A DNA stretch of 64,000 bases from Promethearchaeota archaeon. GTDB taxonomy: Archaea > Asgardarchaeota > Hermodarchaeia > Hermodarchaeales > Hermodarchaeaceae. The notes beneath the pieces are model-generated. The model made no database searches, was not told the origin of the DNA, and was given only the letters and a program-made list of their open reading frames with translations. Positions 30,655 through 39,753 of this stretch are shown piece after piece. The DNA is taken from the NCBI GenBank assembly GCA_048938385.1, contig JBHLMG010000008.1:36084-100083 (forward strand), in the 5' to 3' direction. The position numbers and the translations under genes are program-made. The stretch's first letter is position 1, and each line of letters opens with the position of its first letter.

Positions 30655-31032
30655 TCAAGATTTAGTAAGGCGTTCGATGAGGGCTTTGAAGGTAGCTGCA
30701 GATAAGGCTCCTTTAATGAGGTAATCATTAGTGCCCATTTCCATTACCTCTTTTACTGTTTCATCGTCATCAATCGCGGTAAGAGCCACAATTGCTACAT
30801 CAGGGAATTCGGTTTTTACTTGCTGAATGAGGGTAGTTCCACTAATTTTTGGTAGGACCAAATCAACAAAGAAAATATCTGGAGGATTCGCTCGGATTTT
30901 TGTCAGGGCTTCTTGACCATCGATTGCTGTTTCGATGTCGTACTCTCGGAGTAGGAGTTTGGCCGCGCGAAGGAATGTTTCGGAATCATCCGCTAATAGT
31001 ATGCGGATTTTAGGCGATTTCTTGGAAGCCAA
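30655..31032 (-). CDS. Stand-alone response regulator receiver domain
   Basis: ILLADD, VDLVLP (phospho-Asp), ALTA, DYLIK. Confidence 0.92.
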   Translation of the reverse strand: MASKKSPKIRILLADDSETFLRAAKLLLREYDIETAIDGQEALTKIRANPPDIFFVDLVLPKISGTTLIQQVKTEFPDVAIVALTAIDDDETVKEVMEMGTNDYLIKGALSAATFKALIERLTKS

Positions 31033-32476
31033 TTTGGGGTTTTTCCTCCTTTAGATAGGTGTAAATACAATATTGGGGCGTTGAGGGGGTTATTCCATGA
31101 AATACTGTTACGCCTTCTTTAACGGCTAATTCGACATGGATGTCAGCGAGATCGGCGAGGAAACGGTTGATTTCGGGGGTGCTACTGTATCCAATGGTGA
31201 CTGCAAGGTTGCTTTCAGTAGCTGTGTCATTAGCAATTCGTGTTGCCCATCTGGGTAGTTCAGAGGCTCCTAGCCATGAATGTAACCAGCCAAAGCCTAC
31301 AACACTGAGGAGGTTTTTACAGCCTTGGTTGCGAAGTTCTTCAAGGACTAAACTCCAAGCGTTTTCTAGATCTGAGCTTTCTCGAAAGGCTATCGTTTTG
31401 TAATAGGGTTCTCCTAGTTCACCAGTTGCGCTTGATGCTCCGAGACTAGTGGCTGCGCTTGTAAATAGCCGAAGATGTGTATTCAGCTGATCGACAAATC
31501 CATACCGTAGTGCTGCTGCTTTAAGTCGTCGAAAGCTGAGTTTGTTTGGTGGGACGATTAAGACTCCTCCTTCCTGTCGTAGAAAGTTCGCGATCATGCC
31601 TAATACGAGGGAGTTAACTACTTCATTAGGTACACCCTCTGCAACATCAACAAAGAAGGTGCTACCTCGGCGAAATCCTCCGAAAACATCATCGAGTTCC
31701 TTATTACCGGATGAAAATCGTCCTGCTGTATGAGGAATTACATCAAAGTGTGAAATTCTATAGGCTTCTTCGGGATTAAAAGGGTGCAGAATTGAGAAAT
31801 ATCGTTCGCTTAGCGAAAATCCACGTTTACCACGGTCAATTGGGGTACCACGGAGCTTAATGAGACGAATACTTCGCCACATACGGCGTTCAGTTTGTGT
31901 TTTTATGACGCATAAGATGCCATCCACGATGTGATCAATGGGGGAGTCATCAATACCTTCCATGACGAGAATAAACTTCGCACAAAGACTATGACCCAAA
32001 TTCGTTAATGCGCTAGTGAGTCGCTGCGGGTCAGCTTGAGCTGCTTCGATTATTGCGTCAAAGGAGTCAATAACACAAACCGGATTCTGCATATCATGGA
32101 GGTAATCGTTTACTGCACTGATGAAGGTCAATTCGTCTGAATAGATCATACGTGAGTTTGAGGATGAATCATACCCTGATTCGAAGTCAGGGATTCCCAT
32201 TAGTGAAGGTGTGGCGTCAATAATCTTGCCCTCTGGAAGAAATCCAAAGACCCAGGGAAATTGAGCCTGAAGATTAACGCTGGCTACTCGAGAAGAAAGG
32301 TAGAGAAAATTATCAGCTTGGAACAAATCTGGATATTGTTGAGTCAGTTGATCTAATAGCGAAAGGACAAAGGTCGTTTTACCGGTTCCTGACCTACCTT
32401 TGACCAGAAGCGTCTGCCCCTGCTCCTTTCTTAAGAAACTTATGAGTTCTGGTGGTAATGTCATAGTATTGTGCAC
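31010..32476 (-). CDS. GvpD-like double-domain KaiC/RecA-superfamily ATPase (second domain degenerate)
   Basis: LPPELISFL, GRSGTGKT, VIDS, IKLRG; second domain begins FSSGNKELDDVFGG and has no Walker A. Confidence 0.82.
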   Translation of the reverse strand: MHNTMTLPPELISFLRKEQGQTLLVKGRSGTGKTTFVLSLLDQLTQQYPDLFQADNFLYLSSRVASVNLQAQFPWVFGFLPEGKIIDATPSLMGIPDFESGYDSSSNSRMIYSDELTFISAVNDYLHDMQNPVCVIDSFDAIIEAAQADPQRLTSALTNLGHSLCAKFILVMEGIDDSPIDHIVDGILCVIKTQTERRMWRSIRLIKLRGTPIDRGKRGFSLSERYFSILHPFNPEEAYRISHFDVIPHTAGRFSSGNKELDDVFGGFRRGSTFFVDVAEGVPNEVVNSLVLGMIANFLRQEGGVLIVPPNKLSFRRLKAAALRYGFVDQLNTHLRLFTSAATSLGASSATGELGEPYYKTIAFRESSDLENAWSLVLEELRNQGCKNLLSVVGFGWLHSWLGASELPRWATRIANDTATESNLAVTIGYSSTPEINRFLADLADIHVELAVKEGVTVFHGITPSTPQYCIYTYLKEEKPQIGFQEIA

Positions 32477-32479
32477 CTT

Positions 32480-33019
32480 TTATGTAACAGGCCTACTAGC
32501 ATGGTCTACGAGGAGTTCAGATATCACTTGAAAGAGTTCTTTCACATTTGTGCCTTCTTTTGCTGAGGTTTCCATATAACCTAGCATACCGAGATTTTTT
32601 GCTGTCTTTACAGCATCGTCCTGTTTAACGACGCGTTCAGTAGTGATGTCAACTTTGTTACCCACTAGATAGAGCAAAACGCCAGGAGCGCCTTTCTGAA
32701 CATCATCGACCCATTCTCGAATATTGCTCAAGGTGTCTTTACGAGTCAAATCAAAGACGGTGATTGCGAAATCTGTGCCAAAGAGATACTGGACACGGAC
32801 TCGACGAAAGGAAGTTTGACCAGCAAGATCCCAGACTTGAAGTGAAACATCAGATTTGTTCGCTTTCGTTTTAAAAGAGGAAATCGCGGCTCCGAGGGTT
32901 GCTTTGTACTCCTCATCGAAGGAGTTGGTCATGAAGCGCTTGATCAATGAGGTTTTTCCAACTGCGTAGTCGCCAATGACTGAAACTTTAAACATGTAGC
33001 GGCTACCTTTAACATCCAT
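32480..33019 (-). CDS. Rab-like small GTPase
   Basis: GDYAVGKT, YKATLG, WDLAGQ, NKVD, ETSAK; no C-terminal Cys. Confidence 0.95.
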   Translation of the reverse strand: MDVKGSRYMFKVSVIGDYAVGKTSLIKRFMTNSFDEEYKATLGAAISSFKTKANKSDVSLQVWDLAGQTSFRRVRVQYLFGTDFAITVFDLTRKDTLSNIREWVDDVQKGAPGVLLYLVGNKVDITTERVVKQDDAVKTAKNLGMLGYMETSAKEGTNVKELFQVISELLVDHASRPVT

Positions 33020-33115
33020 CTCTTCAACACCATACCCTGTTAAGTTCGCCCACGCAAGAGTAATGGTAAGTTATGCAGATGATTCGCATTAAGCTTATTG
33101 TTCTTCCTTCTTTGT

Positions 33116-33889
33116 TTATTGTATTGGTGGGAGATCTGAGACTTGAATGCCTTTGTCGTCGATCATTAGGAGAAGGGGATTCATTTGGTGAATAGACCCA
33201 CGCATTTTGGTGATTTCAATAGTCCGGATTCGAACATTGCCCTGGCGGACTAATCTCAGGGTGATTACACCATCCATAAGGAAGCCCTCGACATCGAATC
33301 GACCTATACTTTCGTCAGTCGGGCTTTCCACTGCTACTAGACATGTAGCATTAGTAATGCGGATTGACCTTACCAAGTTAAGGAGGTCGTGGCGAATACG
33401 AAACAGATCTTTATGCTGAAGTGTGAGTGTCGATATGGAATCAATGGCAACCCGCTTTGCTTTGATTTTTCTAATTTCTCGGTGAATTAAGGAAAGAAGA
33501 GATTCCATAGAGAATTCTTCTCGACCTAATACTGGGTGTTCGGGTCTTAACACCACTCGGTCGTTTTGAATCATTGGGGATGCATCAACAAGGGCTAGTA
33601 AACCTTTGGTTACAAGATCTTTGAGGTCCCAGCCAAATTGTCGCATGTTGCGATTCGTGGAATCAAGAGATTCCTCCATGGATACTAAGACGCCTGGTTC
33701 CTTATATTCTGTGGCGCCTTTAACGAGGAATTGGTTCATTAAAATCGATTTTCCTGTTCCTGGTCCACCACTGACTAATATCACTGAGCCTGTAGGAAAT
33801 CCACCGTGGAGCGCATCATCAAGTCCTGGAATGCCTGATTTGGTCTTGTCCACCACGCTGATCCCCCGTGTAGGTGGTTCTCCTAACAT
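33116..33889 (-). CDS. Single-domain KaiC-like (RAD55) ATPase with intact motifs
   Basis: SGIPGLD..L.GG.P, GGPGTGKS, SMEE, AIDS, KMRG. Confidence 0.92.
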   Translation of the reverse strand: MLGEPPTRGISVVDKTKSGIPGLDDALHGGFPTGSVILVSGGPGTGKSILMNQFLVKGATEYKEPGVLVSMEESLDSTNRNMRQFGWDLKDLVTKGLLALVDASPMIQNDRVVLRPEHPVLGREEFSMESLLSLIHREIRKIKAKRVAIDSISTLTLQHKDLFRIRHDLLNLVRSIRITNATCLVAVESPTDESIGRFDVEGFLMDGVITLRLVRQGNVRIRTIEITKMRGSIHQMNPLLLMIDDKGIQVSDLPPIQ

Positions 33890-33974
33890 GGATTACTCAA
33901 TCCCTCGCTTAAGAGGTTTATGTCATCCCTTAATCCCTTTAGAAATCACTACAGAGTTCCCAAAAGCTCCTGCA

Positions 33975-34286
33975 TTAAATGTCGGGATTGTATCGGGTCC
34001 CAAAAAGCCGGTGAGTCCAGTAATAGAGCACTGACCCAGAACATATCAGGAATATTATTCCGGTGACTAATACAAGTATGGGCTGCTGTTCGGGTGCAAT
34101 TGGGAAATATGTGAGAATGATGTAAAGTACAACAAGCCAGACAATAATTGTGATTAAGGCGCCTGGAACCCAAAGAGGCACACGTTTCACATACATCGAA
34201 TTTCCCTCCAATAGTGAATCGTTATCAACTTCCTCGTTTTTCATTCTTCCCTTCTTTTCGGTGTTGCTAAAACCTCCAAATAGCAT
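33975..34286 (-). CDS. Small 2-TM membrane protein (true start likely downstream, about 34244)
   Basis: Two hydrophobic helices; lies upstream of the KaiC gene on the same strand. Confidence 0.55.
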   Translation of the reverse strand: MLFGGFSNTEKKGRMKNEEVDNDSLLEGNSMYVKRVPLWVPGALITIIVWLVVLYIILTYFPIAPEQQPILVLVTGIIFLICSGSVLYYWTHRLFGTRYNPDI

Positions 34287-34385
34287 CTCAGAGTTTGCAA
34301 AAACCTTTTTTCTTACCAGACGCTCTACTTAATTATTCGGTGAGCAAACCATCGGGATGATCGGTGCTTCTCCGAGGGGGTTATA

Positions 34386-35087
34386 GTGCTTCTTGAATCC
34401 ATTATTTCAGGGGGTCTTCCTGCGGGTTCAAGTGTGCTACTTGTTGGACCTCCAGGTTCAGGTAAAACACTAATTAGTTTACAACTAGCCCATGAAGCAA
34501 CTATCTCTGGTCAAGACGCGTTGTACCTTTCCACTGAGAACACTCCCTCTACGGTATTTGCACAAGCTAAAGGTTTTGGATTAGCTCTCAATAAAGAAGA
34601 AAAGAGTAGCATACTTTTTGTGGATGCCTATAGCTGGCGAATTGGGATGCACAAGGATTTGATTGCTACGAGCCGAATAAGCAATCCTGGCAATCTCAAC
34701 GAAGTAAACATGATTGTGACTAACCAAGCGAAACTATTACGACCCAAATCATTGATTGTTATCGACTCATTATCCGGTTTGACTTTAGCTACACCTGATG
34801 AACAACGAATTAGAACTTTTGTGCATAGTCTAGCATTACGCATCGCGCAAATCAATCAAGTTTTGATTTTAGTACTTGAGGATCAAGCCCACGATCGACG
34901 ACTAATCAATAACATGCGTTCATTAGTTCAAGGTACCTTGAACACTAAAGTAGTTGAGGCTGATAATGGTCAAATGCAATGGAAACTGCGTCTCTATAGC
35001 CTTATTGGGGCCTCCTATACCACGCAATGGTTTACTCTTGTTCCAGGACCTAATGGATTAGAGTTGAAGGGAGGGGATTCTCATTAG
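34386..35087 (+). CDS. Single-domain KaiC-like ATPase
   Basis: GPPGSGKT, YLSTEN, FVDAYSWR, VIDSLS; lacks the K-x-R finger (LYSLIG). Confidence 0.88.
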   Translation: MLLESIISGGLPAGSSVLLVGPPGSGKTLISLQLAHEATISGQDALYLSTENTPSTVFAQAKGFGLALNKEEKSSILFVDAYSWRIGMHKDLIATSRISNPGNLNEVNMIVTNQAKLLRPKSLIVIDSLSGLTLATPDEQRIRTFVHSLALRIAQINQVLILVLEDQAHDRRLINNMRSLVQGTLNTKVVEADNGQMQWKLRLYSLIGASYTTQWFTLVPGPNGLELKGGDSH

Positions 35088-35763
35088 TGAGGTTTTTACT
35101 CTTGGATTTACGCCGCAGGAAATTCTTAAAATCCCTCGTGGATCCCAATTACTACTCCTTGGTCCTCCAGGTGTTGCAAAAACCCTCTTTGCTATTCGTT
35201 ATCTAGCTGATCGAATAGAGAAAAACGAGCCTTGTGTTTTTGCCACCACCCTGTGGTCTCCTGATCAGGTGCGTTTTAGTATTAGTCAACATCTCGCGAA
35301 GAACACCCAATCTGATTTATTGGTAGTAGATGGAGTAACTTGTATCACTGCTCAAGCCTCCGCAGAGCCTTATGCCTTTCAGAATCTGTATGATTTGAAT
35401 ACAATTAACCTAATACTATTGCAGGCTATTGCTGATGCACAGAACGGACATCTTTGCATAGATAATTTAACCACTCTCATGACATACTCCGCCCCTCATT
35501 CTGTCATCAAATTTCTCCAAGTACTTAGTGCACGGGTAAAAGATCATGGTGTCACCGGAATTTATCTCGTTGAATCAGGAGTTCAGACGCGGGAGATACT
35601 AAGAACTCTACAATTCTCAGTGGATGGGATGTTTGAAGTTCGGGATGAAGAAGTCGAAGGTCGACTAGTTCATCGACTCCGATTAGCCCATCTGCGTGGA
35701 ATCCAGGTTGATACACGGTGGCTAACTTTCCAAGAGAAAACGCCACTTTGGCTCGATTTTTAG
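35083..35763 (+). CDS. KaiC-like ATPase with a degenerate Walker A; N-terminus extends about 60 codons upstream of the track ORF
   Basis: In-frame upstream read ISEVFTLGFTPQEILKIPRGSQLLLLGPPGVAKT; CIDNL, FSVDG, HLRG. No ATG, GTG or TTG before the Walker A, so either an ATT start or a frameshift. Confidence 0.8.
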   Translation: MSEVFTLGFTPQEILKIPRGSQLLLLGPPGVAKTLFAIRYLADRIEKNEPCVFATTLWSPDQVRFSISQHLAKNTQSDLLVVDGVTCITAQASAEPYAFQNLYDLNTINLILLQAIADAQNGHLCIDNLTTLMTYSAPHSVIKFLQVLSARVKDHGVTGIYLVESGVQTREILRTLQFSVDGMFEVRDEEVEGRLVHRLRLAHLRGIQVDTRWLTFQEKTPLWLDF

Positions 35764-35852
35764 AATCCAATGGAACTGCTCTTTTAATCGCTTTGAAGTG
35801 AAAACATAATTCCTTGCGAAACCTAGATGGAATTGATTTTTTGATTTCGAGA

Positions 35853-36629
35853 TCATGCTTCACTAAAATTCGATTTAGGTGTTGGTTTGGGAGGGAAAAG
35901 GTAGTAGATCATGTCTTCAAAGGTTTCAATGAAACCGGGCACTAGTAGAATCGCTACAATGCATAGAACAAAAACTCCAACAACTCCTAAAACAAAACTC
36001 ATTGGGTAGTGTGCGATTTCCCAAGGTAGTATTCCCCAAAACACTAGCCAGATTTCATACACTACTCTGAGGACATTCGCAATGAACAACATTATGGTGA
36101 CGACAAGTAATGCGAGGATCTTCCGTCGCCATGTTCCTCGGGGCAAAGGCAGAATAAGCCCTGCAAAGACTGCTATAACTTGAATTCCAGTACACTCACG
36201 GACAATTTGGAACTCTTGGAAACCTATCACTACAACCAGAACAGCCGAGTTCACCCAATCTATCACCATGCCTGATGGAACTCCTAACCAAGTAAGAAGA
36301 ACCGCAGATACAGAAGCTGTTGGGACAGCAATAAGGAAGGGTTCGGGACCAAAATATACGATGACCGTTACAATAATAGCAATACACAAGTAGAGGACCA
36401 GTGCCCGTGGAGTCGGTCTGTTAATGTCCTCTGAAGCGTCTGTCACAGGTTTTTCAGGTTCGTCTAGGCTTTTGCTGGCTTTGTCAGTTGTTATAGGATT
36501 CACCGTCCTCTTGGTAGGTGGTGTCGCGTTCTTATGGGGGTGGACATTATTAGCGGAAGCCTTGGTATTAACTGGGGTCTTCTTATTTGCCTTTACTCTT
36601 TTATGTTGGATTGCATCTCGGCGACGCAA
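35853..36629 (-). CDS. Archaeosortase/exosortase family transpeptidase
   Basis: IVRECTG (Cys), ANVLRV (Arg), AHY (His); multiple TM segments. Confidence 0.88.
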   Translation of the reverse strand: MRRRDAIQHKRVKANKKTPVNTKASANNVHPHKNATPPTKRTVNPITTDKASKSLDEPEKPVTDASEDINRPTPRALVLYLCIAIIVTVIVYFGPEPFLIAVPTASVSAVLLTWLGVPSGMVIDWVNSAVLVVVIGFQEFQIVRECTGIQVIAVFAGLILPLPRGTWRRKILALLVVTIMLFIANVLRVVYEIWLVFWGILPWEIAHYPMSFVLGVVGVFVLCIVAILLVPGFIETFEDMIYYLFPPKPTPKSNFSEA

Positions 36630-36723
36630 GAAAGGCTAATCATGCAACCTCTTAACTGCTTATTAGCCTTATTGACTCATTAATTGAAAACACCAAAGGT
36701 TATCCAAGTCTAAAAAGAAGATG

Positions 36724-39700
36724 CTATGCCCATAGCGGAAGGAGAAATACGAATTTGGCTCCCTTGGTGTAATCTTCTTTCACTCGGTTTTCAACCCAAA
36801 TTTTTCCGCCGTAGCGGGCAACGATTTGTTGCACTAAGGTTAAGCCGATACCTGAACCTTGTGTTCTCTCATCAATTCGATGAGTGTATCGGGCAAAAAT
36901 TAACTCCTTGAGCGCTTCTGGTATGCCAGGACCGTTGTCAATCACTTCAATGCGAAGGAACCTTTTGTTCGCGTCATTTCGAACTTTGACTTCAAGTTCG
37001 ACTTTTTCGCTTTTATCGAATTTCACAGCGTTGTGTAAAAGATTATAGAATAAATCGATGAGAAGCTCATCGGCGAGAACCTGAAACTCGTCGGGATGGA
37101 TATTGGTATTAATTCGTATCGTCTTATTTGGAAATGCCTGCTTAACTGACTTGTAGGCCGATCGAAAATCTGGTTCGAGATCACGAACTTCGAGAAGGGG
37201 TTTGCTAGCACCGATTTGAGAGAATTTCTTGACTCGGCCAATCAGCGCCGAACTCCGCTCAACCTGATCCAGTGCAACTTGGATTTGGGCCCGGAGCTCC
37301 TGTGGAAACGCTTGGTGCAAGAGCGGCAATTCTAACGCAGATAAAATTGCTTGGTTAATGTTGTTTAGGTCATGTGCCATTAGGTCTGTGAAAAATTCAG
37401 CTCGTGCTTTGGCTTCATGGAGTTCTCGTTCTGCCTCTTTTCGTTTGGAAATGTTGCGCGTTACTAGAATATACCCCAAAGGATTACCCTTCACATCAGC
37501 AAGGAGAGACGCGCTAATTTCAGCTGGGAATGTTGTATTATCCTTATGGAGAAGTGTAAACTGACGGGGCGAAGCAGCTCCTAATTCAACGGTATAACGA
37601 AGGTTCTCAATGGCTTCTTTGCGTTGTTCCAGTATAACATAATCGAAATAATTCTGACCCAACAATTCTTTGTGCACAGAATATCCGAAAAGGTTGACAG
37701 CACGATCATTTACTAAGACTATATTGCCTTCTGGATCTGTGACTGTTATGGCGTCTGGTGATGTTTCAACTAGGGCTCGATACCGAGACTCAGATTCACG
37801 TAATACTTTATCCGCGTGCATGCGTTGAGTAATGTCACGACAGACACCCCGAAATCCAATAACTTGGTTCTGTTGATCAAGAATCGGACGCCCATTAGCT
37901 TCTAAGATTACAGTGCCACCATCACGGTGAAAGAAACGGTTCACGAGATTTTTGAAAGGGCGGCGTTGAGCAGTTCTCTCCCTCAAAAATTGTTTACTCT
38001 GTTCAACTTCCTCGGGGTTCATGTACTCCCAAAGAGTTCGACCAATCACCTGCCCTGCAGTGATACCCATAATATCTTCGACAGAGTTATTTGAATAAGT
38101 AATTCGTCCTTCGCTATCGATTTCCCAAACCCAATCCGCAGTATTTTCTAAGATTGAACGAAATTTCTCTTCTGAAGCCTTCAAAGCCTCTTCAGCAGTC
38201 TTGTATTCGGTGATATCATTTCCTGCAGTGAGAAAGCCTATTCTCTTTTCTTCTTCATTGTACAGTATAGCTGTATGCCAAGAAATTAAGCGTTCAGCTC
38301 CGCTTTTTGTAAGAATCGGATTCTCAACGAAGGGTTTTTGCTTAATTTCACCTTTTAAGACCGCTTCATAATTTTGTTTCATTCTGTTTCTAATTCGTTC
38401 AGGAATGCAGAGATCAAAGTAGTTTTGCCCAATCATTTCTTCTTCGGAATAACCGAAAACTTCGAGTGTCTTTTTGTTCACTAATGTTATTATTCCGCCA
38501 GCATTCACGGCTAGGAACAAGATTTCAGCGATGTCCAAATATTGCTGTGCACGATCTCGCTCTCGACGAATGGCGTCTTCGGCTATTTTGCGATCATGTA
38601 TGTCCATGAGGGTAGCTTGAGTTACGAGTTGCCCTTGATATTCAATCACAGCTAAGGAAAGTTCAAACCATCGAATATTTCCATTCTTTTGAATACCACG
38701 TATCTCTATGCTAGAGGATCCGGATTCACCTTCTACGAGTGCTCTAAGCTGTTCCAAAGGTCGATATCGATCTTCATGATGAATAAAGTCAAAAACTTGC
38801 CATGGTTTCCAATCAAGAATTTCTTCCTCGGAATACCCAGACAGCTCTACAAACGCGGGGTTCGTGAAGACTACCTTGCCCTTCTGGAGAATGAACAGTC
38901 CCTGAATAGATTGATCAACAAGCTGATGATAAGCTTCTTCAGCACGCTTCTGTGCTGTTATTTCATAGGTTACTTCGACAATACCGGTAAGAACGCCTTC
39001 TTCATCTTTCAAAGGATATCCACGGACTGTCCACACGCGACCATCAGGTGTGGTTATTTCGTTTTCTTGTATTTCATTAGTTTCTCGTGCTTTCACAACG
39101 GGGCAACCAACGCAGGGAGTGTCACGCTGACCCCACAAAGCATAGCAAAAATTACCAGTGATTTCTTCAACAGTTTTGTCAATGGACTCTGCAGCGACTT
39201 TGTTTGCCCAGATTATCTGATTGTTCAGATCTTGATAAACCACATGTTCTGAAATAGAATCTAAAATAATCGTCTTTTCTTCAACAGCTTGTTGAAATGC
39301 CGCTTTACTACCCTTTAGAGCTGTTTCAATTTCTTTAAGTTCGGTGATGTCTTGTTGGATTGATATCGAATGTAGGAGATTTCCTGCTGCATCTGTAACC
39401 GCACTTGCATTGAGTAAAACAGTTCGTTTTTCACCAGTTTTACTCAAAATGAGTAATTCTTCGTTGATGACGGTCCCATGAGTTTTCCAAGCCTGAAAGA
39501 CTTCTCTAACTCTGTCTTCATATTCAGGTGCATAGATCATACGGATGTGTTTTCCAATCAACTCCACCCTATTATACCCAAGGACCTTCAGCGCTGTTTT
39601 GTTGACATCCAGAATTATGCCTTTTGGGGAAACAATATAGCAATACAATGGGGCATTCTCAAAGAACGCGCGAAAGCGTTGGTATTCTTCCTCCCCATCG

Positions 39701-39753
39701 ATATCCTGTGTTCCTCGATTATTCGATAACATGCTTGTGCACCCAGGGTTCAT
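36724..39753 (-). CDS. Cytoplasmic multi-PAS (six) sensor histidine kinase
   Basis: Six PAS/PAC repeats; H-box LMAHDLNNINQ; NLLHNAVK, DNGPGI, GSGIGL. Confidence 0.95.
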   Translation of the reverse strand: MNPGCTSMLSNNRGTQDIDGEEEYQRFRAFFENAPLYCYIVSPKGIILDVNKTALKVLGYNRVELIGKHIRMIYAPEYEDRVREVFQAWKTHGTVINEELLILSKTGEKRTVLLNASAVTDAAGNLLHSISIQQDITELKEIETALKGSKAAFQQAVEEKTIILDSISEHVVYQDLNNQIIWANKVAAESIDKTVEEITGNFCYALWGQRDTPCVGCPVVKARETNEIQENEITTPDGRVWTVRGYPLKDEEGVLTGIVEVTYEITAQKRAEEAYHQLVDQSIQGLFILQKGKVVFTNPAFVELSGYSEEEILDWKPWQVFDFIHHEDRYRPLEQLRALVEGESGSSSIEIRGIQKNGNIRWFELSLAVIEYQGQLVTQATLMDIHDRKIAEDAIRRERDRAQQYLDIAEILFLAVNAGGIITLVNKKTLEVFGYSEEEMIGQNYFDLCIPERIRNRMKQNYEAVLKGEIKQKPFVENPILTKSGAERLISWHTAILYNEEEKRIGFLTAGNDITEYKTAEEALKASEEKFRSILENTADWVWEIDSEGRITYSNNSVEDIMGITAGQVIGRTLWEYMNPEEVEQSKQFLRERTAQRRPFKNLVNRFFHRDGGTVILEANGRPILDQQNQVIGFRGVCRDITQRMHADKVLRESESRYRALVETSPDAITVTDPEGNIVLVNDRAVNLFGYSVHKELLGQNYFDYVILEQRKEAIENLRYTVELGAASPRQFTLLHKDNTTFPAEISASLLADVKGNPLGYILVTRNISKRKEAERELHEAKARAEFFTDLMAHDLNNINQAILSALELPLLHQAFPQELRAQIQVALDQVERSSALIGRVKKFSQIGASKPLLEVRDLEPDFRSAYKSVKQAFPNKTIRINTNIHPDEFQVLADELLIDLFYNLLHNAVKFDKSEKVELEVKVRNDANKRFLRIEVIDNGPGIPEALKELIFARYTHRIDERTQGSGIGLTLVQQIVARYGGKIWVENRVKEDYTKGAKFVFLLPLWA

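Follow-up and report, generated by a model that had tools for sequence, protein, structure and literature searches.

KaiC-type ATPases have been proposed as hubs of archaeal signal transduction (Makarova, Galperin and Koonin 2017, mBio, as taken up in PMC5847659 and PMC13700489), and fusions of KaiC to a receiver (REC) domain occur in Methanosarcinaceae (PMC5847659). We analysed a cluster of this kind in a 64,000-nucleotide stretch of DNA (the window), which comes from a Hermodarchaeum-type Asgard archaeon. A KaiC ATPase, a Rab-like small GTPase, a GvpD-like ATPase of the KaiC family and a stand-alone receiver are encoded one after the other on the minus strand, facing a pair of KaiC-like genes on the plus strand. 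Like the archaeal hubs, in the outline that the two sources give of them, the cluster combines several KaiC-family ATPases, inactivated KaiC domains included, with two-component parts. Unlike the hubs outlined there, it has a Rab-type GTPase inside the probable operon, and Loki-type genomes have a Ras-like and a Rag-like one. Among the KaiC-type signalling clusters of archaea it is a real and conserved variant, one that includes a Rab-like GTPase, and it extends the hub idea to GTPase switches. The first-pass annotation of the window knew of no characterised system with this composition. This holds for the open literature searched, where no paper joined KaiC, Asgard archaea and GTPases; themes that pair individual components are known.

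One such theme is the haloarchaeal protein GvpD, which binds GvpE and lowers its level and needs its P-loop together with a region rich in arginine for this (PMC4390858). The ATPase in the window passes both Pfam models for GvpD and has a Walker motif and an arginine-rich segment. In contrast to the haloarchaeal case, the identity is low, no GvpE-like gene or gvp cluster was seen nearby, a receiver and a GTPase take the place of the transcription activator, and the family is found widely among archaea without reported gas vesicles. Profile scans found no gvp-type family among the nine proteins of the cluster and its neighbours, and a search of the genome for GvpA gave no match, but its positive control also matched nowhere. 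The protein is called GvpD-like here, not GvpD.

Bacterial small GTPases are tied to two-component parts in MglA/MglB with RomR and Frz, in the Streptomyces conservon (CvnA-D) and in Rup group 1 (PMC4316618). There, too, a Ras-superfamily GTPase goes with a histidine kinase or receiver, and the conservon GTPase has been proposed as the output. Those systems differ from the window in using a roadblock/MglB-type partner and no KaiC ATPases. No roadblock/LC7 or longin family was found among the cluster proteins by profile scan, and the GTPase is Rab-like, not MglA-like.

Asgard archaea encode eukaryote-like small GTPases by the dozen, and hardly any of these has a known partner. The GTPase of the window resembles Thor-Rab (PDB 7ezb; PMC10933270) in that both are small soluble G domains whose motifs are complete and which lack a prenylation tail. 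In the cultured Lokiarchaeon MK-D1 (Prometheoarchaeum syntrophicum) the GTPase genes lie mostly outside operons with candidate regulators, and the layout rarely matches a GTPase to a regulator (PMC10933270), whereas the GTPase studied here sits in a conserved probable operon. Here and in the related Loki-, Thor- and Hermod-type clusters, one specific neighbour of the GTPase recurs, the GvpD-like ATPase. With candidate partners named, the question of the Rab-like GTPase becomes testable with recombinant proteins.

Architecture of the cluster

The 2.48 Mb genome to which the window belongs (as contig C34) is 89.8% complete. All nine genes listed in the first-pass annotation were found, with their claimed domains, in the open reading frame (ORF) list and by profile scans. 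Judged from the sequence, the order KaiC, Rab-like GTPase, GvpD-like ATPase and receiver probably represents one operon. The GTPase gene stops 3 nucleotides before the GvpD-like gene starts, and the receiver gene overlaps the GvpD-like gene by 23 nucleotides, its TTG start lying inside it; both distances agree with those given earlier. The KaiC-like pair had been called divergent, which is correct for its plus-strand orientation relative to the minus-strand operon; the two genes themselves stand in tandem. The ATPases and the receiver of the cluster are soluble and so, it appears from its sequence, is the GTPase.

The GTPase (32480-33019, minus strand, 179 residues; PF00071, 2e-45) has complete G1 to G5 motifs with the catalytic glutamine. 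In an alignment GxxxVGK, DxxxQ, NKxD and SAK were invariant and T41 was present in at least 90% of the sequences. All 60 PDB matches listed were Rabs or Rab-family proteins (among them Ypt6, Rab35, Rab6 and Thor-Rab 7ezb, the last with an E value of 3e-29). A carboxy-terminal cysteine motif for prenylation is absent in the window, where the protein ends with DHASRPVT, and in the orthologues. The sequence contains neither a hydrophobic segment nor a lipidation cysteine. These sequence features mark the protein as Rab-like and not as a bona fide Rab.

The GvpD-like ATPase (31010-32476, minus strand) scored 53 bits with PF07088 (cut-off 24) and 29.1 bits with PF20440, which is marginal against the cut-off of 27.9. 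Its amino-terminal domain has Walker A and B motifs and lysine/arginine fingers, and the carboxy-terminal domain has no P-loop. Residues D137, E173, R201, K207 and R209 were invariant in the alignment, and G27, G30, G32 and K33 were kept in at least 90%. The AlphaFold model (predicted local distance difference test score, pLDDT, 87.7) aligned to full-length two-domain KaiC over about 500 columns with an E value of 1e-22; the relative orientation of the domains differs (template modelling score about 0.4). No fusion to a REC or GTPase domain was found among the relatives of near-equal length, all of which were close relatives. A predicted complex of the GvpD-like ATPase with the GTPase, GTP and Mg scored 0.00 in a run without controls and is evidence neither way.

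The stand-alone CheY-like receiver (30655-31032, minus strand; PF00072, 73.9 bits) keeps the DD pair, the acceptor aspartate (FVDLVLP), the threonine (ALTA) and the lysine (LIKG). The single-domain KaiC at the other end of the operon (33116-33889, minus strand, 257 residues; PF06745, 8e-66, 222 bits, cut-off 26.6) has the full catalytic set, namely the Walker A motif GGPGTGKS, the glutamate pair MEES, the Walker B motif IDS and the arginine finger KMRG. These motifs are conserved, and the orthologues from Thor- to Hermod-type genomes are 56-83% identical. Scores for the KaiC equivalog were far under the cut-off.

KaiC-like protein 1 (34386-35087, plus strand; PF06745, 3e-24) has intact Walker A (GPPGSGKT) and Walker B motifs and lacks the arginine finger (YSLIG), a pattern common to all its orthologues. 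KaiC-like protein 2 (35083-35763, plus strand) has a degenerate Walker A motif (GPPGVAKT) and retains the arginine finger (HLRG). Its Hermod- and Thor-type orthologues keep the degenerate Walker A motif and an LRG or VRG finger, with VRS in one genome. The complementary losses of the pair, whose genes appear to be translationally coupled, thus hold in nearly all Hermod and Thor orthologues.

No ATG, GTG or TTG start is found before the P-loop region of KaiC-like protein 2. The codon ATT at 35083 follows GGAGG by 8-10 nucleotides and overlaps the stop of KaiC-like protein 1 (ATTAG), and in the orthologues the aligned codon is ATG, GTG, TTG or ATA, the latter in two orthologues of the same genus. 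Because the start codons of the orthologues align there, behind GGAGG and with the ATTAG overlap, the gene was placed at 35083-35763, and it most likely begins at this ATT. As an observation in its own right, the segment 35068-35090 suggests that initiation at non-canonical codons in this lineage is driven by the Shine-Dalgarno sequence (GGAGG) or is coupled.

Pairing of the histidine kinase with the receiver

A six-PAS histidine kinase of 1009 residues is encoded at 36724-39753 on the minus strand (six PAS_9 stretches; HATPase_c 80.4 bits). Its HisKA match of 16.9 bits is below the cut-off of 26.9, and the boxes of a class I histidine kinase, namely the H-box AHDLNN and the N, G1 and G2 boxes LLHNAVKF, DNGPGI and GSGIGL, were read directly. 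It is a soluble protein in which no convincing transmembrane segment was found.

Family searches of the whole genome, which is about 10% incomplete, gave exactly three PF00072 receivers and four HATPase_c genes, three of which are PAS kinases. Two kinase-receiver pairs lie on another contig, C51, where the partners adjoin in one pair and are 2.9 kb apart in the other, and the six-PAS kinase is the only kinase of the genome without a closer receiver. Since it and the receiver of the window are the only pair left, the two are likely cognate on this census. The two-component pair of the first-pass annotation is borne out to the extent that this kinase is the most plausible partner of the receiver. 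In a Thor-type locus described below, kinases directly abut the receiver. The whole two-component repertoire of three receivers and three PAS-rich kinases is very small beside the 27 small GTPases of this genome.

Conservation of the gene order in Hermod- and Thor-type relatives

The gene order in Asgard relatives had been named as a check on the proposed system. Across the whole region, 11 genomes of the genus are syntenic; unrelated flanks such as the IscS/IscU-type genes are equally so, and synteny within the genus therefore says little. In a different family, whose flanks are unlike, the five-gene core of KaiC, GvpD-like ATPase, receiver and KaiC-like pair is present at 36-56% identity. 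These five genes occur in the sister genus described below and in a genome labelled Thorarchaeota at 39-56% identity. Since the order is conserved in 11 genomes of the genus and the core recurs in other families, the arrangement exceeds chance. The first-pass reading is supported in that the KaiC-family and GvpD-like ATPases, together with the receiver and the Rab-like GTPase, make up a tightly packed cluster that is conserved.

In a genome labelled Thorarchaeota (locus L058), the receiver, GvpD-like and KaiC genes face KaiC-like 1 and KaiC-like 2, after which a GTPase follows. Directly next to the receiver lie PAS kinases, a protein with HisKA and REC domains lies beyond the GTPase, and an archaeosortase is absent. 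In a second Thor genome (L057), the receiver and GvpD-like genes face a GTPase. The HisKA-REC protein of the first locus (L058:13218-13928, genome G326) is a side observation: it has 237 residues, with HisKA preceding the receiver and no ATPase domain, is convergent to the GTPase of that cluster and may be an intermediate of the phosphotransfer or phosphatase type.

The GTPase orthologues located upstream of the GvpD-like gene are 59-77% identical to the window's. Metagenome contigs add three lineages, in which the GvpD-like proteins are 59-63% identical to that of the window and a GTPase gene lies upstream of the GvpD-like and receiver genes. GTPases with 67% and 59% identity go with GvpD-like proteins of 62% and 59%, and these two GTPases are on this account orthologues that diverge in step with the GvpD-like proteins. 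The third lineage (GvpD-like protein 63% identical) has the same gene order, its GTPase being assigned by position and not by comparison. The orthologous GTPase is thus linked to the GvpD-like gene in four sublineages, down to 59% identity of the GvpD-like protein. An insertion of the GTPase in one genus was considered and rejected, as orthologues are found in the three further lineages.

At locus L217, which belongs to one of these metagenome lineages, an inserted LplA-type gene separates KaiC from the rest and a gene of 101 residues lies between the GTPase and GvpD-like genes; the GTPase stays in place. Directly beside the KaiC-like pair of this locus (L217:117-3145), another small GTPase of 204 residues is followed by two TackOD1-domain proteins.

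Neighbours of GvpD-like genes across Asgard archaea

A GvpD-like match with an E value of at most 1e-10 was found in 96 of 400 Asgard genomes. The family is also widespread in other Archaea, including Methanomassiliicoccales, other Thermoplasmatota, ANME-1 and Nitrososphaerales. A tree was built from 62 Asgard and 7 outgroup sequences and labelled with the neighbouring genes. The clade of the window had 100% support, and an overlapping receiver gene is present in every member. In a second, separate clade (96%), a receiver lies just downstream in 8 of 12 members, and the four without it come from one family.

GTPases were found in further clades. In a clade of Loki-type genomes and an allied family (95%), a Ras-like GTPase is encoded 4-51 nucleotides downstream on the same strand in nine of ten loci; these nine come from 5 genera, and the tenth, in which the GTPase is divergent, belongs to the allied family. 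A third gene of the Loki operon encodes a Gtr1/RagA-like GTPase of 428-454 residues in three of the four loci scanned (L062:6793-10246, L063:9552-13137 and L069:2064-5741 for the GvpD-like/Ras-like/RagA-like operons). We also noticed that the G3 motif of the Ras-like GTPase reads DLASQ in place of DxxGQ in three of five aligned Loki-type sequences. In another GvpD-like clade, three of five members have a convergent Arf/Ras-like GTPase of 249-304 residues.

A single GTPase lineage beside all GvpD-like genes was rejected. The GTPases of the different clades are not each other's closest relatives, and the pairing therefore arose more than once. Over all retrieved Asgard loci, 14 of 110 genes directly beside a GvpD-like gene encode GTPases, compared to 7 of 488 at three or more positions away, or some nine times the local background. 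Receivers are encoded by 12 of 110 and 3 of 488 genes, respectively, and in both cases related genomes are included, so that nominal P values are overstated. The safer statement is that there are at least three independent pairings of GvpD-like genes with GTPases and two with receivers. The pairs of GvpD-like gene and receiver and of GvpD-like gene and GTPase each recur in independent Asgard clades.

Proposed mechanism and alternative explanations

We propose, with a probability of roughly 0.55, that the cluster encodes a KaiC-family signalling module that joins the kinase, the receiver, the GvpD-like ATPase, the Rab-like GTPase and the KaiC proteins. The PAS kinase would sense a cytoplasmic cue and phosphorylate the receiver. 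The phosphorylated receiver would then dock on the GvpD-like ATPase and alter its nucleotide state or its oligomeric state. This ATPase in turn would bind the co-expressed Rab-like GTPase in a nucleotide-dependent manner, as haloarchaeal GvpD does with GvpE, and would either hold the GTPase in one state or relay the GTPase state. Further ring ATPases, formed by KaiC and by the complementary KaiC-like heteromer, would cooperate with the GvpD-like protein or compete for it. The PAS kinase, acting through the receiver, is a plausible input to the GTPase cluster.

Several observations weigh against this proposal. A distance of 5.7 kb, with four intervening genes, separates the kinase from the receiver, and most of the other receiver-linked loci have no kinase nearby. 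Outside the Asgard archaea, the GvpD-like genes have neither a receiver nor a GTPase as neighbour. The recurrence of GTPases amounts to a few independent events in genomes where such genes make up about 1% (27 of 2406 ORF-genes here, by ORF scan), and the neighbour counts draw on related genomes. Where other clades have a GTPase next to the GvpD-like gene, it is not an orthologue of the one in the window. A sister genus retains KaiC, the GvpD-like gene, the receiver, the KaiC-like pair, the archaeosortase-like gene and the kinase; in its four loci, however, no GTPase lies between KaiC and the GvpD-like gene, the gap being only 89-130 nucleotides, and an orthologue was not found elsewhere in that genus (best match 42% identical). 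Because it is absent there, the GTPase is not obligatory. The tree of the window's clade has an unresolved three-way split into L217, the genus without the GTPase and the rest. Loss of the GTPase in one genus, or its gain after that genus had branched, is possible.

The same absence speaks for a second explanation, in which the module of KaiC, GvpD-like ATPase and receiver is real and the Rab-like GTPase is a co-transcribed passenger, a paralogue that settled in a permissive intergenic spot and neither influences the ATPases nor is influenced by them. It is also favoured by the lack of orthology between the GTPase of the window and those beside GvpD-like genes in the Thor, Loki and f22 clades, and by the abundance of such genes in Asgard genomes (27 here, 3 to 54 matches per genome in relatives). 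Against the passenger reading, the orthologue is kept immediately upstream of the GvpD-like gene down to 59% identity, diverges in step with it and has intact G motifs. The adjacency of GTPases to GvpD-like genes also stands well above the local background and is seen in at least three clades, one of which has a two-GTPase operon. We regard the passenger as somewhat unlikely.

A wider form of the signalling module would apply to the GvpD-like family in Asgard archaea as a whole. The GvpD-like ATPases would be dedicated partners of small GTPases, as state reader, chaperone or exchange/turnover factor, and the receivers would put Rab-, Ras- and Rag-like switches under a His-Asp phosphorelay. This generalisation is speculative and, in our view, unlikely. 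If true, it would add to eukaryote-like GTPases a layer of regulation in prokaryotic style, one that does without longin or roadblock regulators.

The first-pass annotation had included the archaeosortase-like gene (35853-36629, minus strand) and had considered a control of membrane or surface processes. All nine genes would then form one system, in which the phosphorelay and the ATPases act through the GTPase on the processing of surface proteins or on membrane events. The kinase and the archaeosortase-like gene are indeed co-oriented and 94 nucleotides apart, and both lie beside the KaiC cluster in the two genera of the family. Unrelated flanks are equally syntenic in these genera, so the adjacency is uninformative; the archaeosortase-like gene adjoins the cluster only where the unrelated flanks share the synteny as well. 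Each genome in which the gene was found (52 of 400) has a single copy, and six distant homologues in other families have no kinase or KaiC-type gene within the fetched flanks of about 1.5 kb. The Thor cluster has kinases and no archaeosortase. Neither the archaeosortase as a component nor the control of membrane or surface processes is supported; the GTPase has no lipidation cysteine, hydrophobic segment or other membrane anchor. A single system of this extent is improbable.

Still less probable is that the genes are neighbours by descent only, sharing no pathway, and that the KaiC-family genes have separate tasks, such as DNA repair or archaellum-type roles. KaiC/RadA-like ATPases are numerous (in this genome 11 matches to PF06745 exceed the cut-off) and general synteny is high within the family, as such a view would have it. 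Against it, genes of the cluster overlap or nearly abut, the complementary motif losses of the KaiC-like pair are conserved from Hermod to Thor, and the five-gene core is kept in a different family with other flanks.

A cyanobacterial-type KaiC timing oscillator or an anti-virus defence system, which the KaiC-family domains and the full-length alignment of the GvpD-like protein to KaiC might bring to mind, is hardly tenable, as a search of the 89.8%-complete genome gave no KaiB (the control search was positive in Synechococcus), the second domain of the GvpD-like protein has no P-loop, and PADLOC gave only weak matches at the P-loop level.

Neighbouring genes

The archaeosortase-like gene and a small gene for a protein with two transmembrane segments are best seen as neighbours of the cluster and not as parts of it. 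The first-pass composition was over-inclusive. The latter ORF (33975-34286, minus strand) has two hydrophobic segments and no family match. It was found at 40% identity or more in only one of 11 loci of the same genus and is a variable accessory, not a core gene. The sequence GGAGGG lies 8 nucleotides before the internal ATG 34196 (segment 34194-34286), and the ORF probably starts at this codon with a product of 73 instead of 103 residues.

The archaeosortase-like protein is a membrane protein of the exosortase/archaeosortase family (TIGR04178, 40.6 bits, cut-off 23). It is below the cut-offs of the named subfamilies heimdallarchaeosortase, ArtH and ArtA, with 52.3 of 130, 48.5 of 200 and 34.5 of 75 bits, respectively. 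The amino-terminal extension of about 70 residues (36420-36629) is basic and rich in proline and threonine. In seven orthologous matches (L194, L202 and L204-L208) the extension is broken by in-frame stops, and the true start may be further downstream.

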